Shown here: positions 23,617 through 38,941 of the stretch, one piece after another | Numbering within the stretch: the stretch's first letter is position 1 | Layout: every line of letters starts with the position of its first letter | Virus record (IMG/VR): IMGVR_UViG_3300000291_000011 | Strand: one strand, 5' to 3' | DNA: 52,840 nucleotides | DNA from: a virus | Position numbers and translations under genes: made by a program | Notes under the pieces: model-generated | Seen by the model: only the letters and a program-made list of their open reading frames with translations | The model's database searches: none | What the model was told of the DNA's origin: nothing

Positions 23617-24393
23617 ATGCCCAAAATCGCAGTATCCGCCATTCTGGGCGACTTCCAGCGGATGCTTGACGAGCACTGGAAGTATACGGCTGGTGCAGCG
23701 GAGGCGGGGAACGTTGACTGCTCCGGCGCGTTTGTGTGGTCATACCGTCAGCACGGACAGAGCATCTACCACGGCAGCAACCGCATCGCGCGGACGGAAA
23801 TTGTTGAGCTTGTCCCGATTTCTGCCGCAAAGCCCGGAATGGCTGTTTTCAAGTGCCGGAATCCGGGTGATTCGCGGTATGCCTTGCCGTCTGGCTACAA
23901 ACAGGGCGGTAAGTACTACAACGGCGATTTGCGGGATTTTTACCACATCGGGCTGATGTGTGAGGACGGCAAGGTTCTCAATGCGCAGAGCAGCGCAACG
24001 GGCTTCGTCGCTTCACCCGTCAAGTCGTGGACGTGTGCAGGATACCTCAAAAAAGTCGAATACAAGGAGGATACACCAATGGTGGATGATAGCAACGATG
24101 TTATTTGCGTCGGACACGTGACAGCGCAGAGCGGCAGCACGGTCAATCTTCGCGCAGAGCCGAGCAAATCCGCAAAGGTGCTGGAAAAAGTTAAAATCGG
24201 CACTTCTGTCAACGTCATCGGGAATAGTGGCGGCTGGCTTCACGTCGAGACGGAGACGAATCAGGGCTACATGATGGAGGAGTTTGTCGATGTGGGTATT
24301 TCCAAAACGGAAACACCCACGCTCTCTGAGCTTGCGGAACGCATCGAAAAGCTGGTGGAACGCGTCACAGCACTGGAAGGCGGGGTAGGTTGA
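23617..24393 (+). CDS. Endolysin: NlpC/P60 (C40) peptidase plus SH3 cell-wall-binding domain
   Basis: NVDCSGAFVW catalytic Cys, FYHIGLM His; C-terminal VNLRAEPSKSAKVLEKVKIGTSVNVIGNSGGWLHVE is SH3_3-like. Confidence 0.85.
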   Translation: MPKIAVSAILGDFQRMLDEHWKYTAGAAEAGNVDCSGAFVWSYRQHGQSIYHGSNRIARTEIVELVPISAAKPGMAVFKCRNPGDSRYALPSGYKQGGKYYNGDLRDFYHIGLMCEDGKVLNAQSSATGFVASPVKSWTCAGYLKKVEYKEDTPMVDDSNDVICVGHVTAQSGSTVNLRAEPSKSAKVLEKVKIGTSVNVIGNSGGWLHVETETNQGYMMEEFVDVGISKTETPTLSELAERIEKLVERVTALEGGVG

Positions 24394-24990: not shown

Positions 24991-25242
24991 ATGAGCCGCG
25001 AAGTCGTATGGACAAAAGCGGTTGTAGATGCTTTTGTGGATGAAGCCTGTTTGTCCGATGAAGAGGAGCTGATTATCAGGTCGCGGGCGAAAGGCTGGAC
25101 ACGAACAAAGCAGTCGATACAGTACAACATGAGCATTCGCAAGATTGACTATATTATACACACGCTTAAAACCAAGTACGACGAAGCGCAGAAATACTCC
25201 GAGATTTTACCAAAGCGGAAAACAAAGAAAGCCGGGACGTAA
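24991..25242 (+). CDS. Small sigma-70 region-4-like HTH protein
   Basis: 83 aa; LSDEEELIIRSRAKGWTRTKQSIQYNMSIRKIDYII resembles region 4.2 / LuxR-type HTH. Confidence 0.5.
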   Translation: MSREVVWTKAVVDAFVDEACLSDEEELIIRSRAKGWTRTKQSIQYNMSIRKIDYIIHTLKTKYDEAQKYSEILPKRKTKKAGT

Positions 25243-25259
25243 TGTCCCGGTCTTTTTTT
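25231..25259 (+). terminator. Rho-independent terminator between convergent gene blocks
   Basis: CCGGGAC-gtaat-GTCCCGG followed by TCTTTTTTT; separates plus-strand lysis genes from the minus-strand operon. Confidence 0.8.
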
Positions 25260-25267: not shown

Positions 25268-25861
25268 CTATTCTTGCGCCTGACGCTTGCACTCAACGTC
25301 AAGTTCCGGATACACCCCCGCGATTTTCGCAAGGGTTTCAGTTTTTAGGCGATGGTACAACTCTTCCTTGCCGACAAGCCCGAACAGGTCAACTAATTTG
25401 TCATCATATTCGCAGAGGTTGTGGCGGATGAAATTAACCATCCAGCGTTCAAGCGTCTCGGTATTCGGGGACAATATATCCACATTGCCGTGTTCCAAAT
25501 ACCATTCTTGTTTTGCGTTCAGCGTCGCCTCTTCCAGGACGGGCATATCCCAGCGCGTAACGTGGATGGAAGCAATGAGGTCGTCGGCAATGGCTTCGGC
25601 GTTCTTGCGCTTCGTTTCGACGGCTTTTGCGGATGCCGCCTTCCGCGCGGCTGCTTTTGCCGCCATCGTCTGAAATTCCTGCGTCGCCATGACGGAACGC
25701 ACATCATCCTCGCGCCACAGCTTCATGGGCGCGGAGGACGCATAATGTGGATTCCGCTTAAGGATAGGCGGCGGCAGCAGCTTGTCTATCATGGACTTTG
25801 TGAAGCCCATAGACAATACGCCGCTTTGTGAAATGAGCTGTTCTTTTTGCTTTTCCGGCAT
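25268..25861 (-). CDS. Hypothetical protein (last gene of the cassette-C operon)
   Basis: 197-aa ORF; A/K-rich central linker; no family recognised with confidence. Confidence 0.7.
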   Translation of the reverse strand: MPEKQKEQLISQSGVLSMGFTKSMIDKLLPPPILKRNPHYASSAPMKLWREDDVRSVMATQEFQTMAAKAAARKAASAKAVETKRKNAEAIADDLIASIHVTRWDMPVLEEATLNAKQEWYLEHGNVDILSPNTETLERWMVNFIRHNLCEYDDKLVDLFGLVGKEELYHRLKTETLAKIAGVYPELDVECKRQAQE

Positions 25862-25877
25862 GGTGTCCTCTTTATAT

Positions 25878-26597
25878 CTACTTTGTAATATGTTCCTTTG
25901 ATTTGCGTTTCCTATAATTTTCTCTGGCTCTGCGATTTGCTTCTTCGCGTTGCTCCGCAGTCATCGCTTCATAGCGTGCTTTCTGTGCCGCACGTTTCTG
26001 TTCAGCACGCGACTTGTCATACTCTTTGAGATACTCCTTTTTAGCAGCAAGGCGGCATTCTTCTGAACAATATTCTCCATTTCCGATGGCAGAAAATGTC
26101 TTTTTGCAGTACTTGCAAATCTTCTCTTTTGGAACAACTCGTTTTCGCTCTCTAATAATATTCCCGGCGACCGCGTCATTGCGCTTTTCCGTCATTGCGG
26201 CACGTCGCTGTTCTCGGATTGCTTCTGCAGTAGCACTTTCCTTACATGCTGGGCAGTACTTCTGCTTCCCGCCAAAGACAATATAATCTTTCCCGCATCG
26301 CGCGCACTTATCCGTGCTTCCAAGCGGTCTTCTTGCGCCGCTTCGCCTGTAAATTGCGTTATGCAGCCGATTCGCTGCGTCCTGACATTCTTCACAGCGT
26401 GTGCACTTTGTCGGACGGGTCACAACTTTTCCGCAGTCCGGGCAAGCAAATGTATGCACCATTTCTGGATTCCCACTTTGAGCACCAGTCCCGACGCGCT
26501 GGCGACGTTTCTCGCTTATTTTGTAGCACCCTTCGCTGCAATAAATCCGCCGCCCGTCGGGAACGCGCCCACCACATATTGGGCAAGTCTTATCCAA
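25878..26597 (-). CDS. Multi-zinc-ribbon protein with basic R/K/E/Y-rich C-terminal helix
   Basis: 239 aa with at least five CxxC pairs (CPICG, CPDCG, CTRCEEC, CARCG..CPAC, CKYC..CSEEC); C-terminal KKEYLKEYDKSRAEQKRAAQKARYE.. Confidence 0.7.
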   Translation of the reverse strand: MDKTCPICGGRVPDGRRIYCSEGCYKISEKRRQRVGTGAQSGNPEMVHTFACPDCGKVVTRPTKCTRCEECQDAANRLHNAIYRRSGARRPLGSTDKCARCGKDYIVFGGKQKYCPACKESATAEAIREQRRAAMTEKRNDAVAGNIIRERKRVVPKEKICKYCKKTFSAIGNGEYCSEECRLAAKKEYLKEYDKSRAEQKRAAQKARYEAMTAEQREEANRRARENYRKRKSKEHITK

Positions 26598-26615
26598 CTC
26601 GACACCCCCTGCCGA

Positions 26616-27032
26616 TTATCTAATAACCGCAACGACCTCTGCATCGCACATGATAATCTCCTGCTCGTCCTCGCCAATATGGCTATTGTCTCCATCGCAG
26701 CGCATCAGGTACAGGTGCTCATTATAATACACCTTGTTAATGCGCAACGCCCGCGCGATATTCTTGAGCTGTTTTTCACGCGAATTTGCGATAACAATTT
26801 GCGTTGCACAGACGCCATCAAGTTCCTCATCGCTCATCTCTCCGTCGTACCAATTGTACGAGTTGGGGATGCTATCTCCAACACAGAACTCCCGGTCATC
26901 GTTGCGAAGACCCCAGTCGTAAAAATTCAAGCATTCATCTTCCTTTGCCTTTTCCATCTCCGCAAGAATTTTTTCCGCCGTAGCTTCGACGTCCATGTTA
27001 TCTGCAATCTCCATGATTTCCTTGCAATCCAT
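26616..27032 (-). CDS. Strongly acidic hypothetical protein, first gene behind cassette C
   Basis: 138 aa, many D/E residues; ATG at the cassette RBS. Confidence 0.7.
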   Translation of the reverse strand: MDCKEIMEIADNMDVEATAEKILAEMEKAKEDECLNFYDWGLRNDDREFCVGDSIPNSYNWYDGEMSDEELDGVCATQIVIANSREKQLKNIARALRINKVYYNEHLYLMRCDGDNSHIGEDEQEIIMCDAEVVAVIR

Positions 27033-27150
27033 ACGTTACCTCTTTCCGTCCGGGGCTCTGTTTTGTACCGCCCCTTGACATAATTTATTATAGCACAAGT
27101 TGTGTAACTTGTCAATAGTTTTTTAAGATTTTTCGCAAGTTTTTTGCGTT
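27033..27150 (-). promoter_or_regulatory. Promoter/operator/leader cassette copy C
   Basis: Minus strand: TTGACA (27115-27110), 17-nt spacer with ACAAGTT-ACAC-AACTTGT, TATAAT (27092-27087), hairpin 27080-27047, RBS GAAAGAGG, ATG 27032. Confidence 0.75.
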
Positions 27151-27296
27151 CTTTCCGCAAGCCACTGCGATAGGGCAAGGCGGACAACCGCCGAATCACT
27201 TAGCCCAATTCGCTGCCCAATCGCCTTAATTTGCTCATTCTGCTCGTGCGTCACAATGACGTTCTTAACAATCCGATTTCCATCTTTTTTCAGCAT
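27123..27296 (-). CDS. Ribbon-helix-helix DNA-binding protein, RHH-2
   Basis: ATG 27296 after AGGAGGAC; KNVIVTHEQNEQIKAIGQRIGLSDSAVVRLALSQWL fits strand-helix-helix; last gene before cassette C. Confidence 0.55.
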   Translation of the reverse strand: MLKKDGNRIVKNVIVTHEQNEQIKAIGQRIGLSDSAVVRLALSQWLAERTQKTCEKS

Positions 27297-27310
27297 TTTT
27301 TGTCCTCCTA

Positions 27311-28624
27311 TCATTTAAGCAGATTATCAATTGCTGTTGTCGTCCCCGTCCCGCTGAAATAATGGACGGAAATGCCGCAACCGCGCGCAACGTCGATGAC
27401 GGCGTAAAACTCGGTATGCGACATATACGCCGCCTGAATCCATAATTCCGACGCGCTGCGGATGACGCTTTCCGGGCAGGTCGTGCCGTGCGGATAGGCG
27501 CGGATGGAAGGGAAACGCTCGGTCAGGCGGCGCGCCCATACAGGATGCCCGCCGACGATGACAACACCGTCAGGAATGATTCTGGGGCGTTGCGTGTCGC
27601 CGGGGGCTTCCTGCGTGTCTTCCTGTGCGCTGCGCCAGAGCGCGTCGCGAAGGGCGGTCAGCTCCTGCGCATCCGCTTCATGTGTTTGGAGGGCGGCGAA
27701 TGATTTCTGCGCGTCTTTCTCCTGCTGACGGATGGCAGCTTCCAGCTCGGCAATGCGCTTTTCTGCGGCGGCGGCGCGCTGCTCGGCTTTTTCCTGCGCG
27801 ATTCGCGCTGCTTCCAAGGCGGCAGCGTCGCCGCGAAGGATTTTGTTGATGCAAAATGCCTTGTCCTTTTGGATTGCACGGGCAACCATCAGCGACGCGG
27901 CATTGAGCGCCGTTTTTTCGGGTGTGTCGGAAAGAATGATAGCGGCATCGTCCGCATTGATGCGGATGTCCGCGGTGTAATCCGAGACATCAATGCCAGC
28001 GCCATCGTACATGAGCGCGAACTCGTCAATCGCTTCCACGGCAAAACGGTCGTACAGGTCGCCGAAGCCAGCGACAGGCAGCTTTCCCAAATGTTTTTGC
28101 AGGACTTTTTTATCGTCCGAGGTCGTCTGCTCTTTTCGGATGCTTTTGATGTTAGACTGCAACAAAAGCCAGTCCGAGAGGTCGGCGAAGCTGTCATTGC
28201 TGGCGACTTTTCTTCCGGAAACAAGAATCTGGAAGAATGCAAGCATCGTGCGATAAAGCGCAGTATCGAGATTTTTGTCGAAAATCAGGCAGGAATCAAG
28301 CGAAATTTCCGCGCCCTGCGGGGATGACTTAATGGCATCATGCGTTTTATCGTATGTTTTGCGGTCAACCGCGCGGAGAAGTCCGCGAATGGTGGCTTCT
28401 TCTGCGGCGCGGAGAATGCCCAGCGCGTGAGCGGAAACAATCTGCTGTTCCGCGCGTCCGGCAGTAATTGCGACAGACGACTTGCCAGCGCCGCGCATGG
28501 TGTCCGCATAGTATTTCGCTGGTGACAGCGCATAAAACCGCTCCACCGCGTCGGGGTTGAGGAATGCCATTGCGCGCGCTACGATTGGCGCAAGGTCAAC
28601 GCTGACGCGCCCTGCGTTCTTCAT
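27311..28624 (-). CDS. Large hypothetical protein: unknown N-domain, coiled coil, DUF2325-like C-terminal domain
   Basis: 437 aa; RBS AAAGGAG; coiled coil AAALEAARIAQEKAEQRAAAAEKRIAELEAAIRQQEKD; C-terminal VVIVGGHP..ASELWIQAAYMSHTEFYAVIDVARGCGISVHYFSGTG resembles DUF2325. Confidence 0.7.
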   Translation of the reverse strand: MKNAGRVSVDLAPIVARAMAFLNPDAVERFYALSPAKYYADTMRGAGKSSVAITAGRAEQQIVSAHALGILRAAEEATIRGLLRAVDRKTYDKTHDAIKSSPQGAEISLDSCLIFDKNLDTALYRTMLAFFQILVSGRKVASNDSFADLSDWLLLQSNIKSIRKEQTTSDDKKVLQKHLGKLPVAGFGDLYDRFAVEAIDEFALMYDGAGIDVSDYTADIRINADDAAIILSDTPEKTALNAASLMVARAIQKDKAFCINKILRGDAAALEAARIAQEKAEQRAAAAEKRIAELEAAIRQQEKDAQKSFAALQTHEADAQELTALRDALWRSAQEDTQEAPGDTQRPRIIPDGVVIVGGHPVWARRLTERFPSIRAYPHGTTCPESVIRSASELWIQAAYMSHTEFYAVIDVARGCGISVHYFSGTGTTTAIDNLLK

Positions 28625-28720
28625 TGTGCTGCTCCTTTCATCGCCTAAAATGATTTCGACGCGTTGCGGTTGCTTCCGCGTCCTCCAATCGCGCTTTGCA
28701 GACCATGCGTCGAACTCGTC

Positions 28721-29197
28721 TTAGCGGGCTGTAAGCGTATCGATGATGTCCCTCGCCTCGGTGGCGGTTGAGACGACATAGGCAGCATATAGCCACTTGT
28801 ACGGAAACTTGTCAAGGTTTTGGCGAATAAATTTCTCTATGGTCACACCTGCTTTTTCCGCCGCCGCCGCAATCGCGGCTTGCTTGTCGGGGTCGTCGCG
28901 GGTAGCGATAGCATCCGCGACTGTCTTTTCGTGCGACGCAACAAATTTCGCACGCAGGTCTGTGGCGTACTCGACTTGCTTGTCGCTCACGCCGTGAATT
29001 GTCGGAAGGCTCAATGCCGCCGCCGCTTCGCGCTGCTGCTTGCGCTGCTGCTTGCGGTAGCAGTCGGCGCAAAGAAGGGGATGAGCTTCCGCCCATTCCT
29101 TTTTGCTGTCCGCGTCCCGGCGATTGAAGCCGTCAATGCGGCGTTCAACGGTAGCGCCGCAATCAGGGCATTTGTAGGTGGCAATTGCTTTTGCCAT
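28721..29197 (-). CDS. Zinc-ribbon protein, first gene behind cassette D
   Basis: 158 aa from ATG 29197; YKCPDCG..LLCADCY; then a helical domain (GVSDKQVEYATDLRAKF..). Confidence 0.7.
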   Translation of the reverse strand: MAKAIATYKCPDCGATVERRIDGFNRRDADSKKEWAEAHPLLCADCYRKQQRKQQREAAAALSLPTIHGVSDKQVEYATDLRAKFVASHEKTVADAIATRDDPDKQAAIAAAAEKAGVTIEKFIRQNLDKFPYKWLYAAYVVSTATEARDIIDTLTAR

Positions 29198-29335
29198 GGT
29201 CATTACCTCTTTCCGTCCGGGGCTCTGTTTTGTACCGCCCCTTGACACTATGTATTATAGCACGAGTTGTGCAACTTGTCAACACTTTTTCAAGATTTTT
29301 CGCAAGTTTTTTTGCAACTTTCTCGCGTTTTGTTT
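29198..29335 (-). promoter_or_regulatory. Promoter/operator/leader cassette copy D
   Basis: Minus strand: TTGACA (29282-29277), 17-nt spacer with ACAAGTT-GCAC-AACTCGT, TATAAT (29259-29254), hairpin 29247-29214, RBS GAAAGAGG; AAGTTGCA boxes at 29277-29270 and 29320-29312. Confidence 0.75.
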
Positions 29336-29388: not shown

Positions 29389-29766
29389 GTGTATATCCAC
29401 TACAACCCTAATCCGCGCGGCTTGCGTGTCGGGGATTGCGCTGTCCGTGCAGCATCAAAAGCGGCAGGGGAGACGTGGGGCAGTACCTATGCGGCACTCT
29501 GTGCGCTGGGCTATGACTGCGGAGATATGCCTAACGCAAATCACGTCTGGGGACGATACTTGCATGAGCGCGGATTCTCGCGCCACGCCCTGCCGGATAC
29601 TTGTCCAATCTGCTACACCGTCGCGGACTTCTGCCGTGAGCATCCGCGCGGGGTGTACGTCCTCGGAATCGGCGACCACGTTGTGTGTGCCGTAGACGGC
29701 GACTGGTACGACGCATGGGATAGCGGCGCGGAAATACCTGCATACTATTGGGAGAGGGAGGGTTGA
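29389..29766 (+). CDS. Conserved hypothetical protein with a Cys/His/Asp pattern suggestive of a papain-like fold
   Basis: GTG 29389 eight nt after AGGAGG; YIHYNPNPRGLRVGDCAVRA .. GDHVVCAV .. DAWDSG. Confidence 0.55.
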   Translation: MYIHYNPNPRGLRVGDCAVRAASKAAGETWGSTYAALCALGYDCGDMPNANHVWGRYLHERGFSRHALPDTCPICYTVADFCREHPRGVYVLGIGDHVVCAVDGDWYDAWDSGAEIPAYYWEREG

Positions 29767-29769
29767 TGT

Positions 29770-30210
29770 ATGGCGTATGGTTATCCACAATATTATCCAC
29801 AGATTCCGTATTATAACGCGCAGCAGACGGCAATGCCCGACCAACTTGCGCAGCTTCGAGCGGCACAGCAGCCGATGATGCAGCAGCCATCGCAGCCGTC
29901 GAGCAACGGACTGATTTGGGTGCAGGGTGAAGCCGGAGCGAAGAGCTACCTTGTCGCCAATGGTTCGAGCGTGCTGCTGATGGACAGCGAGAAACAGACG
30001 TTTTACATCAAGTCGGCGGACGCGGCAGGAATGCCGTCCATGCGCACATTTGACTACACGGAGCGCAACGCATCCGTAAAGCCATCCAGCAGCGCGCAGG
30101 ATGCTCCGGAGTATGTAACGCGGGAAGAACTCAACACGCTGACGAAACGCCTTGAAGCGCTGGAAGGACGCAAGAAGAAGGGGGTAACGCAGGATGAACC
30201 CACTATTTAA
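29770..30210 (+). CDS. Hypothetical protein with Y/P/Q-rich N-terminus
   Basis: 146 aa; MAYGYPQYYPQIPYYNAQQ..; then LIWVQGEAGAKSYLVANGSSVLLMD. Confidence 0.65.
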   Translation: MAYGYPQYYPQIPYYNAQQTAMPDQLAQLRAAQQPMMQQPSQPSSNGLIWVQGEAGAKSYLVANGSSVLLMDSEKQTFYIKSADAAGMPSMRTFDYTERNASVKPSSSAQDAPEYVTREELNTLTKRLEALEGRKKKGVTQDEPTI

Positions 30211-30412
30211 TGCACTTGGTGACGGGCAGATGCCCGGAGCGCTGGGAAATTTCCAGCAGATGATGCAGCAGTTTCAGCAGTTCCGAGCGACGTTTCAAGG
30301 CGACCCGGAACAAGAGGTTCGCAAGCTGATTGCATCCGGCAAAATCTCGCAAAACCAGCTTAACCAGCTTCAACAGGCGGCGCAAATGTTTCAAGCGTTC
30401 CTTGGTTCTTAA
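30194..30412 (+). CDS. Q-rich small hypothetical protein
   Basis: 72 aa; FQQMMQQFQQFRATFQGDPEQ..NQLNQLQQAAQMFQ. Confidence 0.55.
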   Translation: MNPLFNALGDGQMPGALGNFQQMMQQFQQFRATFQGDPEQEVRKLIASGKISQNQLNQLQQAAQMFQAFLGS

Positions 30413-30476
30413 CTTTGGCTATATTTGTTGCGCAACAATTTAGCATATACTTCAAAAATCCGAAAGGAGAAAAAAC

Positions 30477-31229
30477 ATGAGTATGACTTCGGAACTCTCC
30501 GCGTCTGACGTGGCTCTGCTTTCCGGCAGAAACAACAACCAGAACGGCGACGGCATGTTCGGCGGAAACGGTGCGTGGTGGATTATTATCCTCTTCCTCT
30601 TCGTCTTCTGTGGGTGGGGCAATAATAGCTGGGGTGGCTTTGGCAATCGCAACGGCGGACAGGGTTCTATCATGGACGGTTACGTCCTCACCTCCGACTT
30701 CGCCAATATCGAGCGAAAAATTGACAACGTGAACAGCGGCTTGTGTGATGGATTCTACGCACAGGCGCAGCTCACCAATGGCGTACAGATGCAGATGGCA
30801 AACGGCTTTGCGCAGGCGGAACTCTCCCGCGCCAATCAGCAAACCGCGCTCATGCAGCAGCTTAACGCGATGCAGGCACAGGCGGCGGATTGCTGCTGCA
30901 AGACGCAGACGGCAATCCAGGGCGTAAACTACAACCTTGCCACTCAGGCTTGCGACACTCGCAACACCATTCAGAGCGGCGTTCGCGACATTTTGGACAA
31001 CGCCAACGCTAACGCCCGAGCGGTGATTGACGCACTGACGGCACAGCGCATCGAGGCGAAGGACGAGAAGATTGCAGCGCAGAATCAGCAGATTTTCGGC
31101 TTGCAGCTCGCCGCTTCTCAGGCAGCACAGAACCAGTACCTCGTGAATACGATTCGTCCTTGCCCTGTTCCGGCGTACACGGTAGCCAACCCGTTCTGCT
31201 GCAATCAGACGCAGTATTGCGCTGGTTAA
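30477..31229 (+). CDS. Membrane protein with G/N/W-rich N-terminus, Q/N/A-rich coiled coil and Cys clusters
   Basis: 250 aa; TM AWWIIILFLFVFCGWG; CCCK and C-terminal PFCCNQTQYC. Confidence 0.65.
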   Translation: MSMTSELSASDVALLSGRNNNQNGDGMFGGNGAWWIIILFLFVFCGWGNNSWGGFGNRNGGQGSIMDGYVLTSDFANIERKIDNVNSGLCDGFYAQAQLTNGVQMQMANGFAQAELSRANQQTALMQQLNAMQAQAADCCCKTQTAIQGVNYNLATQACDTRNTIQSGVRDILDNANANARAVIDALTAQRIEAKDEKIAAQNQQIFGLQLAASQAAQNQYLVNTIRPCPVPAYTVANPFCCNQTQYCAG

Positions 31230-31333
31230 GCTCCAGACAGCTTCCTGCCTGTGCAGGATGAGCCGATAACGGCAACTGAAAAAGCGGCGGGGCGTTGATT
31301 GATTCGCGCCCTGCCGCTGAAAGGAGAAAAATC

Positions 31334-31759
31334 ATGGCTGAATATACTGCGGCGGCGGCTCAAACCGTCGCCAATGGAAACAATGTCCTTTTTACAGACA
31401 CGCCCGTTTGCGCCACGCGGTGCATCGTCCATCGTGAAGGCTCTGGCATCGTAACGCTGCGAGGCATCACAAACGGACAGTGCCGCGCGCGTTTCCGCGT
31501 CAACTTTGGTGGCAATATCGCCATTCCGACGGGCGGCACTGCCGGAGCTATCTCTGTTGCGCTTGCAATCGCAGGGGAGGCGCTTCCGGCTTCTACCGCC
31601 ATCGTCACCCCTGCTGCGGCGGCGCAGTACCAGAACGTCAGCATTGATACCTTTGTGGACGTTCCGGCGGGGTGCTGCACAACCATCAGCGTCAAAAATA
31701 CCGCTGGCGTGGATATTGACGTGCAGAACGCCAACCTGATTGTCACGCGGGTTGCGTGA
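31334..31759 (+). CDS. BclA-C-terminal/C1q-TNF-like beta-sandwich protein (tentative)
   Basis: 141 aa from ATG 31334 (RBS AAAGGAG); NVLFTDTP..IVHREGSGIVTLRG..FRVNFGGNIAIP..ISVALAIAGEALP pattern. Confidence 0.45.
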   Translation: MAEYTAAAAQTVANGNNVLFTDTPVCATRCIVHREGSGIVTLRGITNGQCRARFRVNFGGNIAIPTGGTAGAISVALAIAGEALPASTAIVTPAAAAQYQNVSIDTFVDVPAGCCTTISVKNTAGVDIDVQNANLIVTRVA

Positions 31760-31775
31760 GGAAAGGAGAAACGCA

Positions 31776-32153
31776 ATGAAATATCTTCACGAACTTAAAG
31801 AAAAACTCTGCGAAGAGCTGCAAGAGATTGCGGAGAAGCAGGACATGTCTGCTGGCGACCTCGAAGCCGTTCACAAGCTGACAGACACCATCAAAAATAT
31901 CGACAAGATTGAGATGCTGGAAGCGGACGGGTACAGCAATAACGGCGGCGACTGGGAAGCGCGCGGAAGCTATGACGGTATTTATCGCGATGACCGATAC
32001 AGCCGCCGTGGACGCGATATGCGCGGGCGGTACAGCCGCCACGACGGCACGGACAAGCGCCTGATGGACGAGCTGGAAGAGCTGATGCGTACCATCGAGC
32101 CGGGGAAGCGTGACGTGATTCGGCGAGCGCTTGAAGAACTGAAAGAAGCATAA
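31776..32153 (+). CDS. Hypothetical protein with R/D/S/G/Y-rich low-complexity centre
   Basis: 125 aa from ATG 31776 (RBS AAAGGAG); GSYDGIYRDDRYSRRGRDMRGRYSRHDG. Confidence 0.6.
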   Translation: MKYLHELKEKLCEELQEIAEKQDMSAGDLEAVHKLTDTIKNIDKIEMLEADGYSNNGGDWEARGSYDGIYRDDRYSRRGRDMRGRYSRHDGTDKRLMDELEELMRTIEPGKRDVIRRALEELKEA

Positions 32154-32171
32154 CGGAAAGGGGCTGGCTGC

Positions 32172-32516
32172 GTGGTTACGCTGACGTGGATTGATGGGCA
32201 GATTGAGAAGGCAATCGAAGAGGGCAACAATCCGCAGAACATCCGCGATTTGGCGGCGCTGATTACAGTGCGTGAGTACCTCTCCACGCGGTCAGCCCCG
32301 AAAGTAGATGCACAGAGTGTGCAGGAATCCGCCGATGATAAGAAGCGCCGGGACGCGGTTGTCCTCATGACGCATAGCGCGGACTTGGACACCGTGCCGA
32401 CAATCCAGCAAGTGGAGACAGCGCTGCAATCCATCAGCGTCAACACGCCGGAGGAACGAAAGCGTGTACAGGATGCGAAGAAGTGGGCGCAGATTATCTC
32501 GCAGAAAAACGCTTGA
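32172..32516 (+). CDS. Hypothetical protein
   Basis: 114-aa ORF (GTG start); followed by a terminator. Confidence 0.5.
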   Translation: MVTLTWIDGQIEKAIEEGNNPQNIRDLAALITVREYLSTRSAPKVDAQSVQESADDKKRRDAVVLMTHSADLDTVPTIQQVETALQSISVNTPEERKRVQDAKKWAQIISQKNA

Positions 32517-32521
32517 CAAAA

Positions 32522-32558: not shown

Positions 32559-32798
32559 ACCCCCGTTTTGACTACTTTGCACGACGGAAAGAGGGTCAAA
32601 ATTGCGAATCTGGGGATTGCAAAAACCATGTGCGATAACAGCAGATTGAGCAATTACAAGGCATACGCAAGCGCAGAGTAGCGAAGAGAAAACCGCTTTC
32701 GCTTTCTTCCATGGAAAGCAAACAAAATCCGTAAAACTGTTGGATTCTCTATGGTTCTCAGACCATTGCAACGCTGCTGACTACCATTTTGACTACTT
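32559..32798. other. Candidate attP region
   Basis: Non-coding stretch immediately downstream of int; exact 12-bp direct repeat TTTTGACTACTT at 32566-32577 and 32787-32798, extra TGACTAC at 32778; palindrome TTCCATGGAA at 32707-32716. Confidence 0.35.
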
Positions 32799-33842
32799 GG
32801 ACGTAGAAGTCAACATACTTTCGACCCTTCGGATGGCGTTTTCTTCCTTTTTTTTCGTGAGATGTGCATATATCCGCATTATCATCGTCTCATCCTCATG
32901 CCCCATCCAGCGCGCGGCAGTTTTAATGTCAACATCCGCATCATAGAGCATCGTCGCAAAAGTATGTCTGCAATCGTGCTGCCTGATTGCCACAGTTCTC
33001 CCCGCAATTTTTGTTAGATGATTTTGGTAACGCTTCCACGCATCGGTCACAGCGCTGAAAGAAATAATTTTGTTATCTTTCGATATTATCACGCTTCCGT
33101 GTCGCCCTCGCAAGACACCCCGTAACGGCGGAAACAGCGGCACGTCACGAATACCAGCTTTGGTCTTTGGTGCAGTGACAATATAGTCGGAACGTTCGCG
33201 TCGAATCGCCTTTCGGACGTGAATCACACCTTTTTCAAAATCAACGTCATCATCAATATCGAGCGCAAGCGCTTCTCCACGCCTAAGCCCTGCATACACC
33301 ATCACCATCGCGTAAATTCCCATCCTTTCGCTGTCACAAGTATCTCTGATTAGTTTTATTTCCCAATCATCAAGATTACGGTGCGTCCCTACTGCCCCTT
33401 TCTTCCGCCTAACGTTCTCGCAGGGAGAAATTGCAACTATTCCATCATTTTTTGCAGCGCGAAAAACCGCTCTTGTTGATTCGGCTATCTTCCTTAGCGT
33501 CCCTTCTCCGCGGTCGGAAAAAGCGTTATAAAGTCGCTGTATATCCGACGGCGTAATTAGCCTCATCTCCGTCTTTGGCAGGATTGAGGCTATCTGGTTA
33601 AGGCGTGAGACATATGCATCATATACATTTATGGTCACCTCGCTCTTGTACGTCGGCAGCCACTCCGCCGCGTACTCCGCGAACGTATACTTTTCCCGTG
33701 GTTTCCTGCCGTATTTTTCCTGCTTTTTGTACTCTTCACGGGCTGCAAGGGCTTCTGACTGCGTTCGCCCGTAGAACGAGAATCCCTTATATTTACAAAC
33801 ATAACGCCCGTCGGGGCGCTTTTTTAGTGTCTGGCGTGGCAA
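32793..33842 (-). CDS. int: Tyrosine recombinase / phage integrase
   Basis: TTG 33842 eight nt after AAGGAG; ..GLRRGEALAL.. (Arg), HDCRHTFAT (HxxR), RIYAHL (Tyr). Confidence 0.9.
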   Translation of the reverse strand: MPRQTLKKRPDGRYVCKYKGFSFYGRTQSEALAAREEYKKQEKYGRKPREKYTFAEYAAEWLPTYKSEVTINVYDAYVSRLNQIASILPKTEMRLITPSDIQRLYNAFSDRGEGTLRKIAESTRAVFRAAKNDGIVAISPCENVRRKKGAVGTHRNLDDWEIKLIRDTCDSERMGIYAMVMVYAGLRRGEALALDIDDDVDFEKGVIHVRKAIRRERSDYIVTAPKTKAGIRDVPLFPPLRGVLRGRHGSVIISKDNKIISFSAVTDAWKRYQNHLTKIAGRTVAIRQHDCRHTFATMLYDADVDIKTAARWMGHEDETMIMRIYAHLTKKKEENAIRRVESMLTSTSK

Positions 33843-34017
33843 GTGTATCACTCCTTTTCTCTTATTGTGCCGCAAAACGCAGCAAAGTGCCATCGTAAAA
33901 TGTGAACAAATTGAAAACATTTTGCAAATGCACGGAAAATTTTTTATCATATTTCGCTGTGCGTCAGCATATGGTATTGCGGTGGACGGTAAAAAATACG
34001 CGACTGGAGAGGAAAAT

Positions 34018-34146
34018 ATGCCTGTTTTTGATAAAAAGTTTGTTGTTAAAATGCTCGTCGAGAAGGTGAAGGAACTGCCGGATGACCTGCAAGCGGAATT
34101 TTTTTCGTGGCTGGAAAAGAAAATTTCTGCAAAGAAAACGTTATGA
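34018..34146 (+). CDS. Possible 42-aa protein
   Basis: ATG 34018 after GGAGAGG; MPVFDKKFVVKMLVEKVKELPDDLQAEFFSWLEKKISAKKTL. Confidence 0.3.
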   Translation: MPVFDKKFVVKMLVEKVKELPDDLQAEFFSWLEKKISAKKTL

Positions 34147-34185
34147 ATACATAAACAATATGAACTGCGGAGAGCATCGAATCCG

Positions 34186-34258
34186 AAAGCAAACGGAAGC
34201 AAAGCAAAAGCAAAAGAGAGCAAACAAAAGCAAAAGAAAGCAAAGCTAAGCAAAGAAA
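34186..34258. repeat. Purine-strand microsatellite (GCAAA/GCAAAA/GCAAAG)n
   Basis: About 13 consecutive GCAAA-type units. Confidence 0.85.
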
Positions 34259-34435
34259 AGCTATGCTATCATTTGCTATTCTATTTTTCCGGATGCGAAA
34301 GTCAGGAAAGGTAAAACCACGCCCATGAAGGTCAGGGAAAGTCAGAAAATGATGCACTTCATAATTTGCAAAAGCGCCTGAAATACAGTGATTGCAAGGC
34401 TTTGCGCCACGCTGACGCAAAAATCCGCAAAATGC

Positions 34436-34570
34436 GATAGCTATGCTAAAAATAAAATAGCTTAGCTATTAAAAAAATAGCTGAATTATTTTTGCTATTA
34501 AAAAAAATAGCACAGCTAAAAAATAAATAGCAGAATTATTTTTGCTATGCACATTTTTTGTGCTATTTGG
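34436..34570. repeat. A-tract plus ATAGC/GCTAT iteron-like repeat zone
   Basis: A6-8 tracts each followed by TAGC; repeated units such as AAAAAAATAGCTGAATTATTTTTGCTATT and AAAAAATAAATAGCAGAATTATTTTTGCTATG. Confidence 0.8.
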
Positions 34571-34610
34571 CGCTAATAATCTCCGCGTTTTACAAGTGGC
34601 GTTTGTTGTC

Positions 34611-34654
34611 TCGCGCGCGCGACATAGTTATATTATAATACACACTTGTGTGTA
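34611..34654. repeat. Two perfect palindromes: TCGCGCGCGCGA and TACACAC-TT-GTGTGTA
   Basis: 12-bp alternating CG palindrome at 34611-34622; 16-bp inverted repeat at 34639-34654, at the boundary of the AT-rich block. Confidence 0.85.
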
Positions 34655-34770
34655 ATAATAATATATATATCATACAGTATAATATAAGTTGCTATATAGT
34701 ACAAGTATGGATATATAATAATATAAGCAGCTATATAACACAAGTATGTATATATAAATAATATATAATA
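34651..34770. repeat. 39-bp AT-rich tandem repeat, about 2.5-3 copies
   Basis: GCTATATAGTACAAGTATGGATATATAATAATATAAGCA (34691-34729) versus GCTATATAACACAAGTATGTATATATAAATAATATATAA (34730-34768), plus a degenerate copy upstream. Confidence 0.75.
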
Positions 34771-34945
34771 AAAGACCACTACTACCACCACAAGAACACA
34801 TACTCGACAGAGTGGGGTAGGGGGATAATAGGGGGTATAGAGTAATAGGGGGTATGGGGGGAAGAGAGAAAAGGGGGGAAGAAGCGGGAGGGGAGAGGGA
34901 CGGGCGGTGGTTTTGTGGTGGTGGCAGCGGCGGTGGTCTTTTTTT
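34770..34945 (+). other. G-tract block enclosed by a long-range interrupted stem and followed by T7 (candidate structured RNA or terminator-like element)
   Basis: 34774-34793 (GACCACTACTACCACCACAA) pairs with 34913-34938 (TTGTGGTGG..GGTGGTC). The enclosed about 119 nt carry ten or more G3-6 runs and no C from 34811 to 34884. A4 precedes and T7 follows. Confidence 0.4.
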
Positions 34946-34958
34946 ATCCAGCACCTTT

Positions 34959-35080
34959 CTGCGGGCATCCGCAGCATGGTCATCTTCGCGGCTTTGCGAA
35001 ATTGATAGCCGCGGGGCAGACCATTTTCGCGGCATCACGCAAATGGTTCTCGCTGCCCGTTTTGTTGGGGTCAACAAAAC
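34959..35080. other. Four stem-loops, three directly abutting
   Basis: H1 34959-34974 (CTGCGG/CCGCAG); H2 34987-35013 (CGCGGCT/AGCCGCG); H3 35014-35058 (GGGCAG+ACCATTT / AAATGGT+CTGCCC); H4 35059-35080 (GTTTTGTTG/CAACAAAAC). Confidence 0.6.
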
Positions 35081-35285: not shown

Positions 35286-35699
35286 TCACGGTTCTCCCTT
35301 TTCAGCATCCCCCTTGTCCGCCATGCGCTTTAAGCTATCACGTTCCTTGCGCTCCTGCCGCATCCGACGTTCCGCCCTCGCGGTGAGGTACTCAACGTAG
35401 TCCATCGCCTCGCGCACAACGTCATCCGGCGCACCCATCAGCTTGGCGATAATCGCCTCGCAGGTTGCGTCGAGGATAGGGCGGTCAGACGTTCCATGCG
35501 GGTTGTCGGACAGTCCGCAAAGGTAGTCGGTGGTCACGCCGAGCGCTTCGGCGAACTTCACGACGCTGGTAATCTCCGGCGTGATGGTTCCACGCTCATA
35601 GCAAGAATACGTCGCTTGCGACACTCCAACGATGCTTGCCATTTCGGCTTGCGTCTTTTTTTTTGCCTTTCTCGCTTCCTTGAGCCTATCTCCAAGCAT
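35286..35699 (-). CDS. CI-like repressor (XRE-family HTH, no S24 peptidase domain)
   Basis: 137 aa; LKEARKAKKKTQAEMASIVGVSQATYSCYERG; divergent from a cro-like gene. Confidence 0.75.
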   Translation of the reverse strand: MLGDRLKEARKAKKKTQAEMASIVGVSQATYSCYERGTITPEITSVVKFAEALGVTTDYLCGLSDNPHGTSDRPILDATCEAIIAKLMGAPDDVVREAMDYVEYLTARAERRMRQERKERDSLKRMADKGDAEKGEP

Positions 35700-35731
35700 G
35701 AAAACACCTCAAAAATTTTTTGCATATTACC

Positions 35732-35760
35732 TTGACATATATAATCGAGTGTGCTATTAT
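35732..35760 (+). promoter_or_regulatory. Promoter for the cro-like gene (switch 1)
   Basis: TTGACA 35732-35737, 17 nt, TATTAT 35755-35760. Confidence 0.6.
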
Positions 35761-35796
35761 TAGCATTGATAATAAGCACTGATTGGAGGGATGCGG

Positions 35797-35997
35797 ATGC
35801 AGAACCGCGTGCGTGAGTTCCGCGCAAAGAAGGGCTTTACGCAGATGCAGCTTGCGTGCGAAATCGGATGTGAGCAGGGGCTTGTGTCTCTGTATGAGAG
35901 GGGTGTAAATACCCCGTCACTGCATAACGCTCTTCGCCTTGCCCGTGCGCTTGGCACGACGGTCGAAGCCCTTTTCGGGGGTGAGGTCGATGGCTGA
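35797..35997 (+). CDS. Cro-like XRE-family HTH protein
   Basis: 66 aa; REFRAKKGFTQMQLACEIGCEQGLVSLYERG. Confidence 0.75.
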   Translation: MQNRVREFRAKKGFTQMQLACEIGCEQGLVSLYERGVNTPSLHNALRLARALGTTVEALFGGEVDG

Positions 35998-36529
35998 GAA
36001 GCTGCGGCACTTTCTCCACGTCGCCGGGGTTCAAGGAATCAGCGTCGCCGCGCTGTCCGAAAAGTCGGGTATCTCGAAGCCGACTATTTACCGATACGCC
36101 AACGGACAGGGAAGTCCAACTGTTGACGCGATGAAGCGCATTGCGAAAGCCCTCGGATGCACAGTCCGAGAGACGTTCCCGGAGGTTTACGGCGAGAAAG
36201 CGGACGTGCCGACCGTCAACATCACGGACACGCAGCCCATCAGCACGGCAAAGCTGGCGATGCAGTACGGCATGACAACACGCGAGTTCAATCAGGCGCT
36301 GTTCCGCGCTGGCATCCAGATACAGCGCGCCGATGGCTCTTGGGTGGTCGCCGGGGACTTTGCCGACATGGTGACTTACAAGCCCGTCAAAACGGAGAAC
36401 GGCACTGTGCGGCTGTTCGCCATGTGGACGCTGACAGCGCGAAAGGTGATTCAGTCCTTGCTTGAGGAGCAAGGGATAGTTCCGGCAACTGGCGTGAACG
36501 TGGGGTCGTCGGAGCGCCCGACGAGATAG
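35990..36529 (+). CDS. HTH plus KilA-C/ANT-like antirepressor-type protein
   Basis: ATG 35990 overlaps the cro stop; N-terminal ISVAALSEKSGISKPTIYRYANG; C-terminal ISTAKLAMQYGMTTREFNQALFRAGIQ is ANT-like. Confidence 0.6.
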   Translation: MAEKLRHFLHVAGVQGISVAALSEKSGISKPTIYRYANGQGSPTVDAMKRIAKALGCTVRETFPEVYGEKADVPTVNITDTQPISTAKLAMQYGMTTREFNQALFRAGIQIQRADGSWVVAGDFADMVTYKPVKTENGTVRLFAMWTLTARKVIQSLLEEQGIVPATGVNVGSSERPTR

Positions 36530-36714
36530 TCGAGCGACACGCCGTAGAAGTCAGCAATGCGGACAAGTGCCGAAAGCGTCGGTTCGCTGCATCCAGACTT
36601 GTAAAGCTGGTACGCGCGAACAGTAATCCCTGCTGCCTCTGCAATCTGCGCATTGCGATAGTCAAAAAACGTCTGCAAGTCGCAGAGACGAGAGCGAAAG
36701 TCAGACAAAAACAA
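36451..36714 (-). CDS. XRE-family HTH regulator (switch 2, leftward)
   Basis: 87 aa; NAQIAEAAGITVRAYQLYKSG; its 3' end overlaps the convergent 35990-36529 gene by 79 nt. Confidence 0.7.
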   Translation of the reverse strand: MFLSDFRSRLCDLQTFFDYRNAQIAEAAGITVRAYQLYKSGCSEPTLSALVRIADFYGVSLDYLVGRSDDPTFTPVAGTIPCSSSKD

Positions 36715-36735
36715 TCACCAACTTTCAGAAATCGC

Positions 36736-36764
36736 TTGACGTGAAGAATAATTCGTGCTATAAT
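36736..36764 (+). promoter_or_regulatory. Promoter (switch 2, rightward)
   Basis: TTGACG 36736-36741, 17 nt, TATAAT 36759-36764. Confidence 0.6.
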
Positions 36765-36797
36765 GAGCATGAAGAATACTTCACGGAAGGAGTGGAG

Positions 36798-36989
36798 ATG
36801 CAGAATGTTCAGCTTGTCAATGCGCGGAAAGCCTCGAATATGACGCAAGTCGAGGTTGCAAGCCGCTGCGGGGTTACAGTCCGCGCATATCAGCACTACG
36901 AAGCAGGACAGCAAACCCCCAGCGTTACGACAGCGATTCGCATTGCCGACGCGCTGGGGGTGGAAGATGTCAGGGCGCTATTTGGATAG
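36798..36989 (+). CDS. XRE-family HTH protein (switch 2, rightward)
   Basis: ATG 36798 after GGAAGGAGTGGAG; ARKASNMTQVEVASRCGVTVRAYQHYEAG. Confidence 0.7.
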   Translation: MQNVQLVNARKASNMTQVEVASRCGVTVRAYQHYEAGQQTPSVTTAIRIADALGVEDVRALFG

Positions 36990-36992
36990 GCA

Positions 36993-37766
36993 TCACAAAG
37001 GCATTCCAACTGGCTTCTTGCCCTTCTCGCAGACGATGCAATACACAAAATTGCCATCTGCGTCCGTGAAGTATAGCGAAACCTCATTCGGCGCAATATC
37101 GGCAATCGTCTGCAAGACAGAGGCGTATTTATCGCGGATTTTGGTAAAGTCTGACGATGTTCCTTCCTGCTTCGCCTTGATAAAGCTGGTCGAGAATGCG
37201 CCACCGACACGGATTCCGTAATCTCCATCGGCGTAGATTACCGACTGCAAAAAATCCGACTGACCGTACACCTCGTTGATTTTCTCAAAAATCGCCGGGT
37301 CTGCACCTTCTTTAACAAAGCTGTTTGTATCGGCATTGATTGGCAACTTCGTCTCCTTGATGGTATAGACTGCGCCTTCGGAGGACATAATCAGGAAGGG
37401 TTCGCCAGAAAAGTCCCTCGAGAAAAAGAAATCAATCTCGACGCAGTACGAATCATTGCAGAACTCCCAAGTCATCTCCGTAATCTGAACCAGCAACTCG
37501 GCATACGAATCCTTGATTTCCTTGTAATTTTTAGGGTCGCATGTTGCGAATGTTGCAGTGTTTTGAGACGACACCTTGATGATATAACAATGCCGTTCGG
37601 GGTCTAAGGAAACATTGTAGTACAATCCGATTGATTTGTCATCTTTGCAATATGCTTGCAAAACCCCCAAGAGGTAGTCTTCCAACGCGGCTTTTTCCGC
37701 CAGCGCGGGGACACAGGAAGCCATCAGGCAGCAGAGAACCAGCAGGACGGAAACAAACTTCTTCAT
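36993..37766 (-). CDS. Secreted protein or lipoprotein
   Basis: Signal peptide MKKFVSVLLVLCCLMASCVPALA with a possible lipobox (LMAS-C); 257 aa, no family recognised. Confidence 0.7.
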   Translation of the reverse strand: MKKFVSVLLVLCCLMASCVPALAEKAALEDYLLGVLQAYCKDDKSIGLYYNVSLDPERHCYIIKVSSQNTATFATCDPKNYKEIKDSYAELLVQITEMTWEFCNDSYCVEIDFFFSRDFSGEPFLIMSSEGAVYTIKETKLPINADTNSFVKEGADPAIFEKINEVYGQSDFLQSVIYADGDYGIRVGGAFSTSFIKAKQEGTSSDFTKIRDKYASVLQTIADIAPNEVSLYFTDADGNFVYCIVCEKGKKPVGMPL

Positions 37767-37803
37767 CGTGATGATACCCCTTTCGTGTTTTGGAGGTGTG
37801 AAC

Positions 37804-38151
37804 GTGTATCAGAGCAAACGGCAGTTGAAAAAGCAGATTCAGGATTTGAAGGAGCGCATCGAGTACTTGGGAAAAGAGAACTTCGCGCTTCGCAAGGAAA
37901 CGTACATGAGCGAGGGATTGTTAAAGAGTAACCCGCTTTTGAGCTGGTACGGCAAGGAGTTGTGCCTTGCGTTCGGGCGAATCCTCGTTGCTCCGCGCTA
38001 TATGCAGCTGGACTTCGACCAGTACAGCAAGTATATGCGCGATGTGCTGGACTACCTGAAAGAAATCAGGCTACTTGAAGAGAGCTATCAGCGAGAGAAT
38101 CAAGCTGACGGCGGAGATGCCGACGGGAAGCAGGAATCGCAAGCAACTTGA
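37804..38151 (+). CDS. Hypothetical coiled-coil protein
   Basis: GTG 37804 after GGAGGTG (alternative start 37768); KRQLKKQIQDLKERIEYLGKEN. Confidence 0.5.
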   Translation: MYQSKRQLKKQIQDLKERIEYLGKENFALRKETYMSEGLLKSNPLLSWYGKELCLAFGRILVAPRYMQLDFDQYSKYMRDVLDYLKEIRLLEESYQRENQADGGDADGKQESQAT

Positions 38152-38346
38152 CTTGTACTGCTCCATTTCATCCAGCGCGTGACGGTTCAGCTCCGGCACA
38201 TAATCCGGCGGACGTGCATCAAGGTCGGATGGGTGCGGCGGCGGTGGCGTCAAGAAGTCGGACGAACGCAACCGCGCAAGCTGTTCCGCCGAAAGCTGTT
38301 TGCCGCGCTGAAAGTCGCGGCAGAGACGATATTCCGATTCAAGCAA
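38071..38346 (-). CDS. Possible tail-anchored membrane protein
   Basis: C-terminal TM LLPVGISAVSLILSLIALF; proposed TTG start 38346 after GGTGGTGAG; overlaps the convergent gene by 81 nt. Start uncertain. Confidence 0.35.
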   Translation of the reverse strand: MLESEYRLCRDFQRGKQLSAEQLARLRSSDFLTPPPPHPSDLDARPPDYVPELNRHALDEMEQYKSSCLRFLLPVGISAVSLILSLIALFK

Positions 38347-38397
38347 GGCATACTCACCACCTTTCACGCATACGATAAGAGCAGGGAGGTGAATCCG

Positions 38398-38478
38398 ATG
38401 TACCACGTCAACCCGCCAGACATCGAGAACCGGGTGAAGTACGCCATCACGACGCGGCGGACGCGAAAAAGGCTTTAA
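38398..38478 (+). CDS. Possible 26-aa basic peptide
   Basis: ATG 38398 seven nt after GGGAGGTG; MYHVNPPDIENRVKYAITTRRTRKRL. Confidence 0.25.
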   Translation: MYHVNPPDIENRVKYAITTRRTRKRL

Positions 38479-38618
38479 ACGGAAGCAACGTCTAATTCGC
38501 ACAAAAACGCCCGCAGGAGCGCTTGCACGTCGAGAGTGGTATTCCTCACCTGACGGGCTGGAAGCGCTCAGAACGTCGTTTTTGTCCTTGTAGAGTGTGT
38601 GTCCGACGCAAACGCGAA

Positions 38619-38930: not shown

Positions 38931-38941
38931 GGTGCATCACC

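Follow-up and report, generated by a model that had tools for sequence, protein, structure and literature searches.

A putative acr-aca-like accessory island with a ribbon-helix-helix regulator and exchangeable cargo in an uncultured temperate phage

The DNA considered here is IMG/VR record IMGVR_UViG_3300000291_000011, a stretch of 52,840 nucleotides (hereafter the window) whose source is an uncultured, temperate tailed phage. Six minus-strand open reading frames (ORFs), with small gaps between them, tile positions 25268-29248, and we call their products Zn158, g437, the ribbon-helix-helix (RHH) regulator, g138, g239 and g197. A sequence-only reading of this DNA had treated the six genes as one block, which would fit either an anti-defence set or a defence or exclusion system. 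We judge it slightly better than an even bet that the block is a two-operon accessory island, with expression set by the RHH protein, which works like an anti-CRISPR/anti-defence locus of the acr-aca type. In the following, we present the regulatory anatomy of the block, its exchange of cargo among related phages and the company that its genes keep elsewhere, and then weigh this reading against its rivals.

The block is divided by a 110-nt direct repeat, which the sequence-only reading overlooked. The two copies (27036-27145 and 29203-29312, 93% identical) lie directly upstream of g138 and Zn158, and the block therefore consists of two operons, P1-Zn158-g437-RHH and P2-g138-g239-g197. The promoters P1 and P2 are the only full matches (12/12) to the pattern TTGACA-17-TGnTATAAT in the region. 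In both of them an inverted-repeat operator, the palindrome CAAGTTnnnnAACTTG, is located inside the core promoter, between the -35 and -10 boxes, and these two sites are its only occurrences in the window. The stretch from the RHH gene to P2 contains no detected terminator. We rejected the palindrome as an operator of the main repressor of the phage, because neither the immunity region nor the remainder of the window contains it.

A small DNA-binding regulator gene closes operon 1. Its product shows the strand-helix-helix pattern and is 57-63 amino acids (aa) long in its window forms, the conserved start at 27296 giving the form of 57 aa. Searched against the PDB, the family profile finds ORF56 of pRN1 (2k9i, E 8e-5), followed by CopG and VapB-type antitoxins, and the homologue in an operon of a different phage (locus L030) exceeds the Pfam RHH_1 threshold. 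The gene is found in nearly all related loci. An alignment of the protein was too divergent to seed a scan of the collection. Two types of the protein can be distinguished by one residue of the beta-strand. All 45 sites that go with an Asn (..VKNV/I..) have the operator AAG(T/A)T..AAC, and all 15 sites that go with a Cys (..KCI/V..) have AAGGT..ACCTT; residue and operator thus agree at 60 of 60 sites, and the P1 and P2 operators of one phage switch together. The Cys type occurs in lineages that are 82%, 60% and 52% identical to the window protein, and the Asn type in lineages from 100% down to 41% identity. In locus L038, where the protein looks recombinant, with Asn in an otherwise Cys-type background, the operator stays AAGTT. 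The beta-strand of RHH proteins reads the major groove of DNA. On this ground, together with the covariation of residue and operator, there is strong comparative evidence that the RHH protein binds the palindromes; repression by it is strongly supported, and it very probably acts on both operons. The sequence-only reading had proposed that the block carries its own regulator, and the covariation bears this out.

Additional RHH genes are found among the relatives. In one related phage (represented by L013 and L082), a second, divergent RHH protein of the Cys type, with 52% identity, is encoded inside operon 2, so that this island holds two RHH genes. In the lineage of L018 and L030, a different RHH-like protein of 62 aa (KKNW..AN..I) is encoded at or near the operon start (L018 7441-7629, L030 4453-4641), and there is thus one putative regulator at each operon end.

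Two further elements accompany the promoters. The 5' untranslated region (5' UTR) of each operon holds a hairpin (GTCAAGGGGC..loop..GCCCCGGAC) ahead of the ribosome-binding site (RBS), and 36 nt, comprising most of the hairpin and the RBS, are identical between the two repeat copies. The pairing is kept in more distant loci, where RNAalifold gives seven pairs, three of them with compensatory double changes that come mainly from locus L021. Because the pairing is kept through compensatory changes, the hairpin may be a functional RNA element, for which the evidence is modest; scanning the window for Rfam families and tRNAs gave no match. Each -35 box is directly preceded by an A-rich element that contains a short inverted repeat, CGCAAAAAACTTGCG (27116-27150 and 29283-29317, minus strand). 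This element remains unchanged while the operator switches among phages, and for that reason it is probably not an RHH site and was rejected as a second one; it may be an UP element or the site of another factor.

To see which parts of the block are constant, relatives were gathered via g437 and via g197, and 42 distinct block versions with the same flanking genes were compared. A frame of P1, RHH, P2, usually g197, and the terminator side persists among them. The cargo within this frame changes: we count 28 gene orders, and the ORFs fall into about 28 clusters, a few of which are spurious ORFs over the promoter region. In other words, closely related elements with conserved flanks differ in their cargo. 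The gene for g437 is present in 19 of the 42 versions, and L021, in which g437 is only 45% identical, still has two promoter copies. In slot 1, which holds Zn158 and g437 in the window, the alternatives are a 125-aa protein, a 335-aa protein with a sub-threshold match to DUF3560, and a 54-aa ORF; in slot 2 they are a 449-aa repeat protein, helix-turn-helix (HTH) proteins, and small acidic proteins with isoelectric points (pI) of 4.0-4.4. Scans of the alternative cargo against Pfam and PHROGs gave almost nothing apart from the sub-threshold DUF3560 match and HTH domains. Since the frame persists while the cargo turns over, the six genes are not one co-conserved system by the test of co-conservation that the sequence-only reading had set for itself; only the promoters, the RHH gene and, mostly, g197 are retained. 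Zn158, g437, g138 and g239 are interchangeable cargo in a regulated holder.

Some of the exchanged genes deserve mention. The 449-aa protein, which stands in place of g239 in L012 (12209-13558) and also in L010, L043, L062 and L067, has an internal tandem repeat of about 100 residues (WTLADxDGNIY..NGWTALD) and no significant family match. On the plus strand, diverging from P1, the ORFs of the attP side (29400-32520) encode proteins of 146, 250, 154 and 137 aa, among others; the 250-aa protein is rich in Gln and Asn, contains a hydrophobic segment and is Cys-rich at one end. This attP-side cargo has no Pfam matches. In L021 most of it is conserved alongside the island; the truncated L022 retains a part.

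The neighbours of the cargo in other elements point towards counter-defence. The operon of L030, from a different phage, has the same layout of promoter, palindrome and hairpin, and it holds homologues of Zn158 (33% identity) and g197 (58%) together with a 334-aa homologue of the anti-CRISPR protein AcrVA2, and ends in an RHH gene whose product is 33% identical to the window protein. The AcrVA2 homology was confirmed via PDB entry 7ci1 (E 8.8e-12), the local copy of Pfam not reporting the precomputed 'AcrVA2-like' match for this protein. Locus L018 has matching frame elements (a similar first RHH, an HTH gene and a terminal RHH), and its cargo is a g437 homologue. Two larger elements, L068 and L069 (82-107 kb), encode a clear ArdC (ArdcN 6.5e-24, MPTase-PolyVal 1.2e-36), and at 1.2-1.7 kb upstream of it, on the same strand, they have homologues of g197 and Zn158. 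Genes like those of the alternative cargo families are present too, c4-like and c10-like in L068 and c16-like in L069, and an AcrVA2-like gene is located about 10 kb away on both contigs. Finally, in Dulem virus 39 the Zn158 and g197 homologues come after a Cro/C1-type HTH gene, in what looks, from its position, like an early operon. Homologues of verified anti-defence genes are therefore seen among the cargo of L030 and in L068 and L069, and none is found in the window. By association, an anti-defence role would be the best-supported reading of the cargo; of the two options that the sequence-only reading had left side by side, the evidence leans to this one, by association only.

The proteins themselves are barely annotated. 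At a meaningful level, none of the six matches anything in Pfam, NCBIfam or PADLOC; against PADLOC-DB v2 there was no match at E < 0.01, and two at chance level (E 0.012-0.013). Their PHROG matches are to families without assigned function, with the exception of a partial match of g239, and PDB sequence searches with g437, g197, Zn158, g138 and g239 returned nothing significant. No structural, lysis or replication family was found in Pfam, PHROGs or NCBIfam, in agreement with the sequence-only reading.

The most persistent cargo protein, g197, has 117 homologue clusters. It consists of an XPA/Rad14-like DNA-binding domain (residues ~9-97) and a helical C-domain with the motif RWMVNxIRHxLxxYD. 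Its structural model is confident (pLDDT, the predicted local distance difference test score, of 91.7), and the top eight Foldseek matches in the PDB are all XPA or Rad14 (probability 0.93-0.99, E 0.05-0.35). The XPA_C family (PF05181) scores 13.5 bits, short of the gathering cut-off of 25, and a motif common to g197 and XPA, K-x-N-P-H..M-K-L-W/Y, agrees with the structure matches. The zinc finger of XPA is absent: g197 has no Cys4 finger and only two Cys. These observations are consistent with an XPA-like DNA-binding fold of the N-domain, and DNA binding is predicted. If so, it would be an unusual borrowing, by a phage, of a damage-recognition module of eukaryotic type.

For g437, the AlphaFold2 (AF2) model (mean pLDDT 74.5) shows a helical N-domain (~1-265), a coiled coil of 70 residues (267-335) and a four-stranded, Rossmann-like C-domain (354-436). 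Its homologues comprise 14 clusters at 90% identity and about 27 full-length distant relatives; two scans of genome contigs with g437 gave no relative. Relatives occur as lone genes after a lysis cassette or in an early region. The DUF2325-like C-terminus claimed by the sequence-only reading is a real likeness but an indirect one. The protein itself has no Pfam match at E up to 1; relatives that share its C-domain reach 18-21 bits with PF10087, below the gathering score of 33.6; and a viral 'DUF2325 domain-containing protein' gives a full-length match to the AF2 model (E 3e-13). Given the sub-threshold scores and this structure match, the C-domain is at best a distant relative of DUF2325. Against the PDB, Foldseek finds only generic folds for the C-domain (designed Rossmann 2x2, PTS-IIB and flavodoxin) and no match for the N-domain. 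No information on the function of DUF2325 or DUF3560 was found in the literature.

Among the remaining cargo, Zn158 has an N-terminal Cys4 zinc ribbon (CPDC..CADC) and a helical C-terminal part, with 31 homologue clusters and a match to phrog_16123 (E 6e-11); its homologues include those of L030, L068, L069 and Dulem virus 39 mentioned above. The acidic g138 matches phrog_18666 (E 4e-12), and its homologue in Mannheimia phage 3927AP2 is a stand-alone gene with its own promoter. In g239 we find four Cys4 zinc-binding units, not the five or more zinc ribbons proposed by the sequence-only reading, followed by a basic tail rich in Lys, Arg and Glu. It matches phrog_1271 (E 8e-10), is represented in 11 phage records and partly matches the zinc-ribbon region of a PHROG family labelled 'HNH endonuclease'; its 272-aa variants in related phages have a C-terminal HTH of the Xre type.

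From these elements we propose the following course of events. The two promoters are near-identical, of the consensus sigma-70 type, and need no phage activator, so they would fire as soon as the DNA enters the cell, P1 driving Zn158, g437 and RHH, and P2 driving g138, g239 and g197. As the covariation suggests, a dimer of the RHH protein would then bind the palindrome in the spacer of each promoter and shut P1 and P2 down. The result would be an early burst on infection and a low, steady expression in the lysogen, while the conserved hairpin of each 5' UTR may serve to stabilise the transcript or to control its translation as well. The cargo would most likely be inhibitors of host immunity or other establishment factors acting on nucleic acids. 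Zn158 and g239 would take part as zinc-ribbon proteins; g197, with its XPA-like domain, may bind DNA junctions or lesions; the acidic g138 could be a DNA mimic, and several small cargo proteins of pI 4.0-4.4 are found among the block versions; and g437 would be a coiled-coil cargo protein with a DUF2325-like Rossmann domain.

Several observations weigh against an anti-defence island. None of the six proteins shows homology to a characterised anti-defence protein, and the AcrVA2-like and ArdC genes are absent from the window; guilt by association is a weak argument when most neighbours lack annotation. The covariation of regulator and operator is evidence of a comparative and not of a biochemical kind, and it comes from phylogenetically related loci. 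A BLASTP comparison of the window RHH protein with Aca14 (WP_005725436.1), the RHH-type regulator to which we return below, gave no alignment at E up to 100. Autorepressors control restriction-modification (RM) and toxin-antitoxin (TA) modules as well, and the prophage end is a classic site for defence and exclusion genes too. The protein g437 is large for an inhibitor, and a profile search finds its coiled coil and C-domain, without the rest, in more than 1000 proteins, most of those listed being 600-800 aa long. Three contexts of such relatives were viewed, on short or mobile-element contigs; one lies beside the S subunit of a type I RM system and one beside a HepT/MNT pair, which would fit a defence role as well.

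The main rival accordingly takes the block for a prophage-encoded defence or superinfection-exclusion island, in which the cargo, and g437 above all, would be single-gene immunity or abortive-infection factors held at an RHH-set level in the lysogen. Much of the anatomy would suit it: the position at the prophage end in the gap between lysis genes and integrase, the orientation opposite to the late genes, promoters of a constitutive type, and a negative autoregulation that would keep the level steady. The relatives of g437 that stand alone directly after the lysis cassette, those of its C-module on mobile elements beside an RM S subunit, a reverse transcriptase or a HepT/MNT pair, and a hotspot-like turnover of cargo, which is typical of defence islands too, point in the same direction. 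We nevertheless regard this explanation as rather unlikely, because there is no PADLOC model match below the threshold given above, because no recognisable effector enzyme (nuclease, NADase, protease or ATPase) was found in the block proteins, and because the homologues of Zn158 and g197 keep company with counter-defence genes, namely an AcrVA2 homologue and ArdC. Their place after a Cro-type HTH gene in Dulem virus 39, and the many small and acidic proteins among the alternative cargo, also speak against it.

It is also conceivable, and in our view quite improbable, that the cargo consists of early regulatory or DNA-transaction genes unrelated to immunity, such as modulators of host transcription, DNA repair or the lysis-lysogeny decision. 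Most of the cargo does look nucleic-acid-binding (zinc ribbons, g239 variants with an Xre-type HTH, HTH_23 proteins, the XPA-like domain of g197), and an RHH-controlled operon beyond the late genes recalls immI of phage P22. On the other hand, core regulatory genes are not expected to come and go among near-identical phages, no antirepressor domain of the Ant, KilA or Bro type was found in Pfam or PHROGs, and the neighbours in related operons are counter-defence genes. Least probable by far is a toxin-antitoxin or addiction pair of g437 and RHH, in which case the remaining genes would be passengers. There is a 4-nt overlap between the longest RHH ORF and the stop codon of g437, the two genes occur together from 100% down to 45% g437 identity (L021, L022), and RHH antitoxins do autoregulate via palindromic operators. 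We rejected such a dedicated pair, however, because RHH, with both promoters, persists without g437 in over half of the blocks; relatives of g437 likewise occur without an adjacent RHH, and the RHH proteins, at 52-63 aa, are a bare DNA-binding fold with no C-terminal neutralising extension. An anti-defence island under RHH control is the reading that we retain as the best supported.

The six ORFs are genes and not chance ORFs, because each has protein-level homologues of matching length elsewhere; at the nucleotide level, blastn found no match to the block among 50,697 phage records. All six minus-strand genes of the sequence-only reading are present where it had placed them (Table 1), the longest ORF of Zn158 being 175 aa, from a GTG at 29248. 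The AT skew is negative over 25-30 kb, in agreement with minus-strand coding, whereas the late genes of the window are on the plus strand. The flanks described earlier, endolysin and integrase, are likewise confirmed, and the block does occupy a moron-type accessory position, at the junction of lysis genes and integrase.

Table 1. Genes, regulatory elements and flanking features of the accessory island (positions in the window)
Feature	Position	Strand	Remarks
Endolysin (NlpC/P60+SH3)	23617-24393		Holin-like ORFs behind it
Bidirectional intrinsic terminator	25231-25251		Shared with convergent plus-strand gene 24991-25242; closes the block
g197	25268-25861	-	197 aa; most persistent cargo gene
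g239	25878-26597	-	239 aa; TTG start; pI 9.7
g138	26616-27032	-	138 aa; acidic, pI 4.25; variable cargo, slot 2
Operon 2 5' UTR hairpin	27048-27079	-	GTCAAGGGGC..GCCCCGGAC; RBS AAGAGG
Promoter P2	27087-27115	-	TTGACA, 17-nt spacer, TGcTATAAT; 12/12 consensus
P2 operator palindrome	27096-27111		CAAGTTacacAACTTG; in P2 spacer
RHH regulator	27123-27314	-	63 aa; last gene of operon 1
g437	27311-28624	-	437 aa; variable cargo, slot 1
Zn158	28721-29197	-	158 aa from ATG behind RBS; variable cargo, slot 1
Operon 1 5' UTR hairpin	29215-29246	-	GTCAAGGGGC..loop..GCCCCGGAC, then RBS AAGAGG
Promoter P1	29254-29282	-	TTGACA, 17-nt spacer, TGcTATAAT; 12/12 consensus, extended -10
P1 operator palindrome	29263-29278		CAAGTTgcacAACTCG; in P1 spacer
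Tyrosine integrase ORF	32793-34253	-	True start probably internal
CI-like HTH repressor	35286-35699		

A few other features of the window should be mentioned. Near the packaging genes, a plus-strand ORF of 488 aa (2682-4148) matches phage proteins annotated as ParB N-terminal or DNA adenine methyltransferase, including those of Listeria B054 and Enterococcus phiFL3A, at 35-40% identity. It was rejected as the large terminase on account of these matches; it may be an orphan methyltransferase, and as such would be protective against restriction in its own right. A stretch of low GC content (34001-35000; 0.39, compared with about 0.53 elsewhere) separates the integrase from the CI-like repressor and may be the attP region or a foreign insert. 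The immunity region that follows is unusually rich in regulators, with at least six ORFs for Xre-type HTH proteins in alternating orientation (35286-39552). Among them, a minus-strand ORF of 257 aa (36993-37766) has an N-terminal signal peptide and a lipobox-like start (MKKFVSVLLVLCCLMASC), and its product could be a surface or exclusion lipoprotein expressed in the lysogen.

The best reading of the locus remains an RHH-gated, acr-aca-like accessory island, and its chief value lies in its use as bait for cargo families and in the clean co-change of repressor and operator specificity. If this reading is true, the frame of promoter, operator, hairpin and RHH gene can be searched for by sequence in metagenome phages, which are barely annotated, to find counter-defence genes, and the present locus family already gives about 28 candidate ORF clusters. 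The two RHH types are a natural experiment on DNA specificity, in which one beta-strand residue changes with one operator base. One may speculate much further, although we consider the whole of this proposal improbable: the frame might be a general RHH-gated cassette holder in phages of uncultured bacteria, mostly metagenome-derived ones, with several new classes of immune inhibitors among its cargo; g197 might shield phage DNA from nuclease-based immunity or repair, g437 might intercept a nucleotide-based defence signal, and the Asn/Cys switch might define 'regulatory immunity groups', so that co-infecting relatives do not silence each other's islands.

How does the island compare with known systems? 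The immI region of phage P22 (arc, ant, mnt) has an antirepressor under the control of RHH repressors. It resembles the island in that small RHH repressors act on the strong promoter of an accessory operon, which is located away from the main immunity region. The island differs in having mosaic cargo, no Ant-type antirepressor and no second regulator such as Mnt. Clusters for anti-restriction and establishment that include ArdC occur on conjugative elements. Homologues of g197, Zn158, c4, c10 and c16 lie on the same strand as ArdC in the elements of 82-107 kb, in likeness to such clusters; the window, in contrast, belongs to a temperate tailed phage and has no ArdC, ArdA, SSB or PsiB-type gene.

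The classical acr-aca systems include Aca1 of Pseudomonas phage JBD30, Aca2, and the AcrIIA1 loci of Listeria prophages. Like these, the island combines a strong promoter, variable small cargo and a terminal autorepressor acting on inverted repeats in the promoter, and its cargo turns over among near-identical phages. The AcrIIA1 locus of Listeria prophages also lies beside the lysin gene, at the prophage end. The differences are that the classical regulators are HTH proteins, whereas the present one is an RHH protein, that no known Acr is found among the cargo, and that the cargo includes two large proteins (437 and 239 aa).

A close parallel in regulatory logic is Aca14, an RHH-type protein of Pasteurella multocida that has been shown experimentally to repress its own and a neighbouring anti-defence operon (bioRxiv 10.64898/2026.07.27.740549). 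In the same study, no motif with significant covariation was found in the Aca14 5' UTR, and RNA elements of the 5' UTR are reported for the Aca1 and Aca2 families (bioRxiv 10.64898/2026.07.27.740549). In the island, by contrast, a 5' UTR hairpin is conserved. The inverted repeat of Aca14 is AT-rich (TGTATATG..CATATACA) and overlaps the -10 box, whereas the window palindrome takes up the spacer and directly adjoins the -35 box. Aca14 is a protein of Proteobacteria and the window comes from a phage that is uncultured, and Aca14 has an N-terminal helical extension that the window protein lacks. The fold class alone is common to both. Similarity to Aca14 was not significant for the first RHH-like protein of L018 and L030 either (E 0.037 over 14 residues). 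Since there is no detectable similarity, we regard the window RHH protein as an analogue of Aca14 and not as a member of its family. The arrangement itself is alike: a small RHH gene in the aca position, an inverted repeat in the core promoter, largely unannotated cargo, and the same site recurring before the neighbouring operon, which suggests one regulator for two operons. If our reading is true, this RHH-type Aca logic, in which one regulator serves two adjacent operons, would extend to an RHH family with no detectable relation to Aca14.

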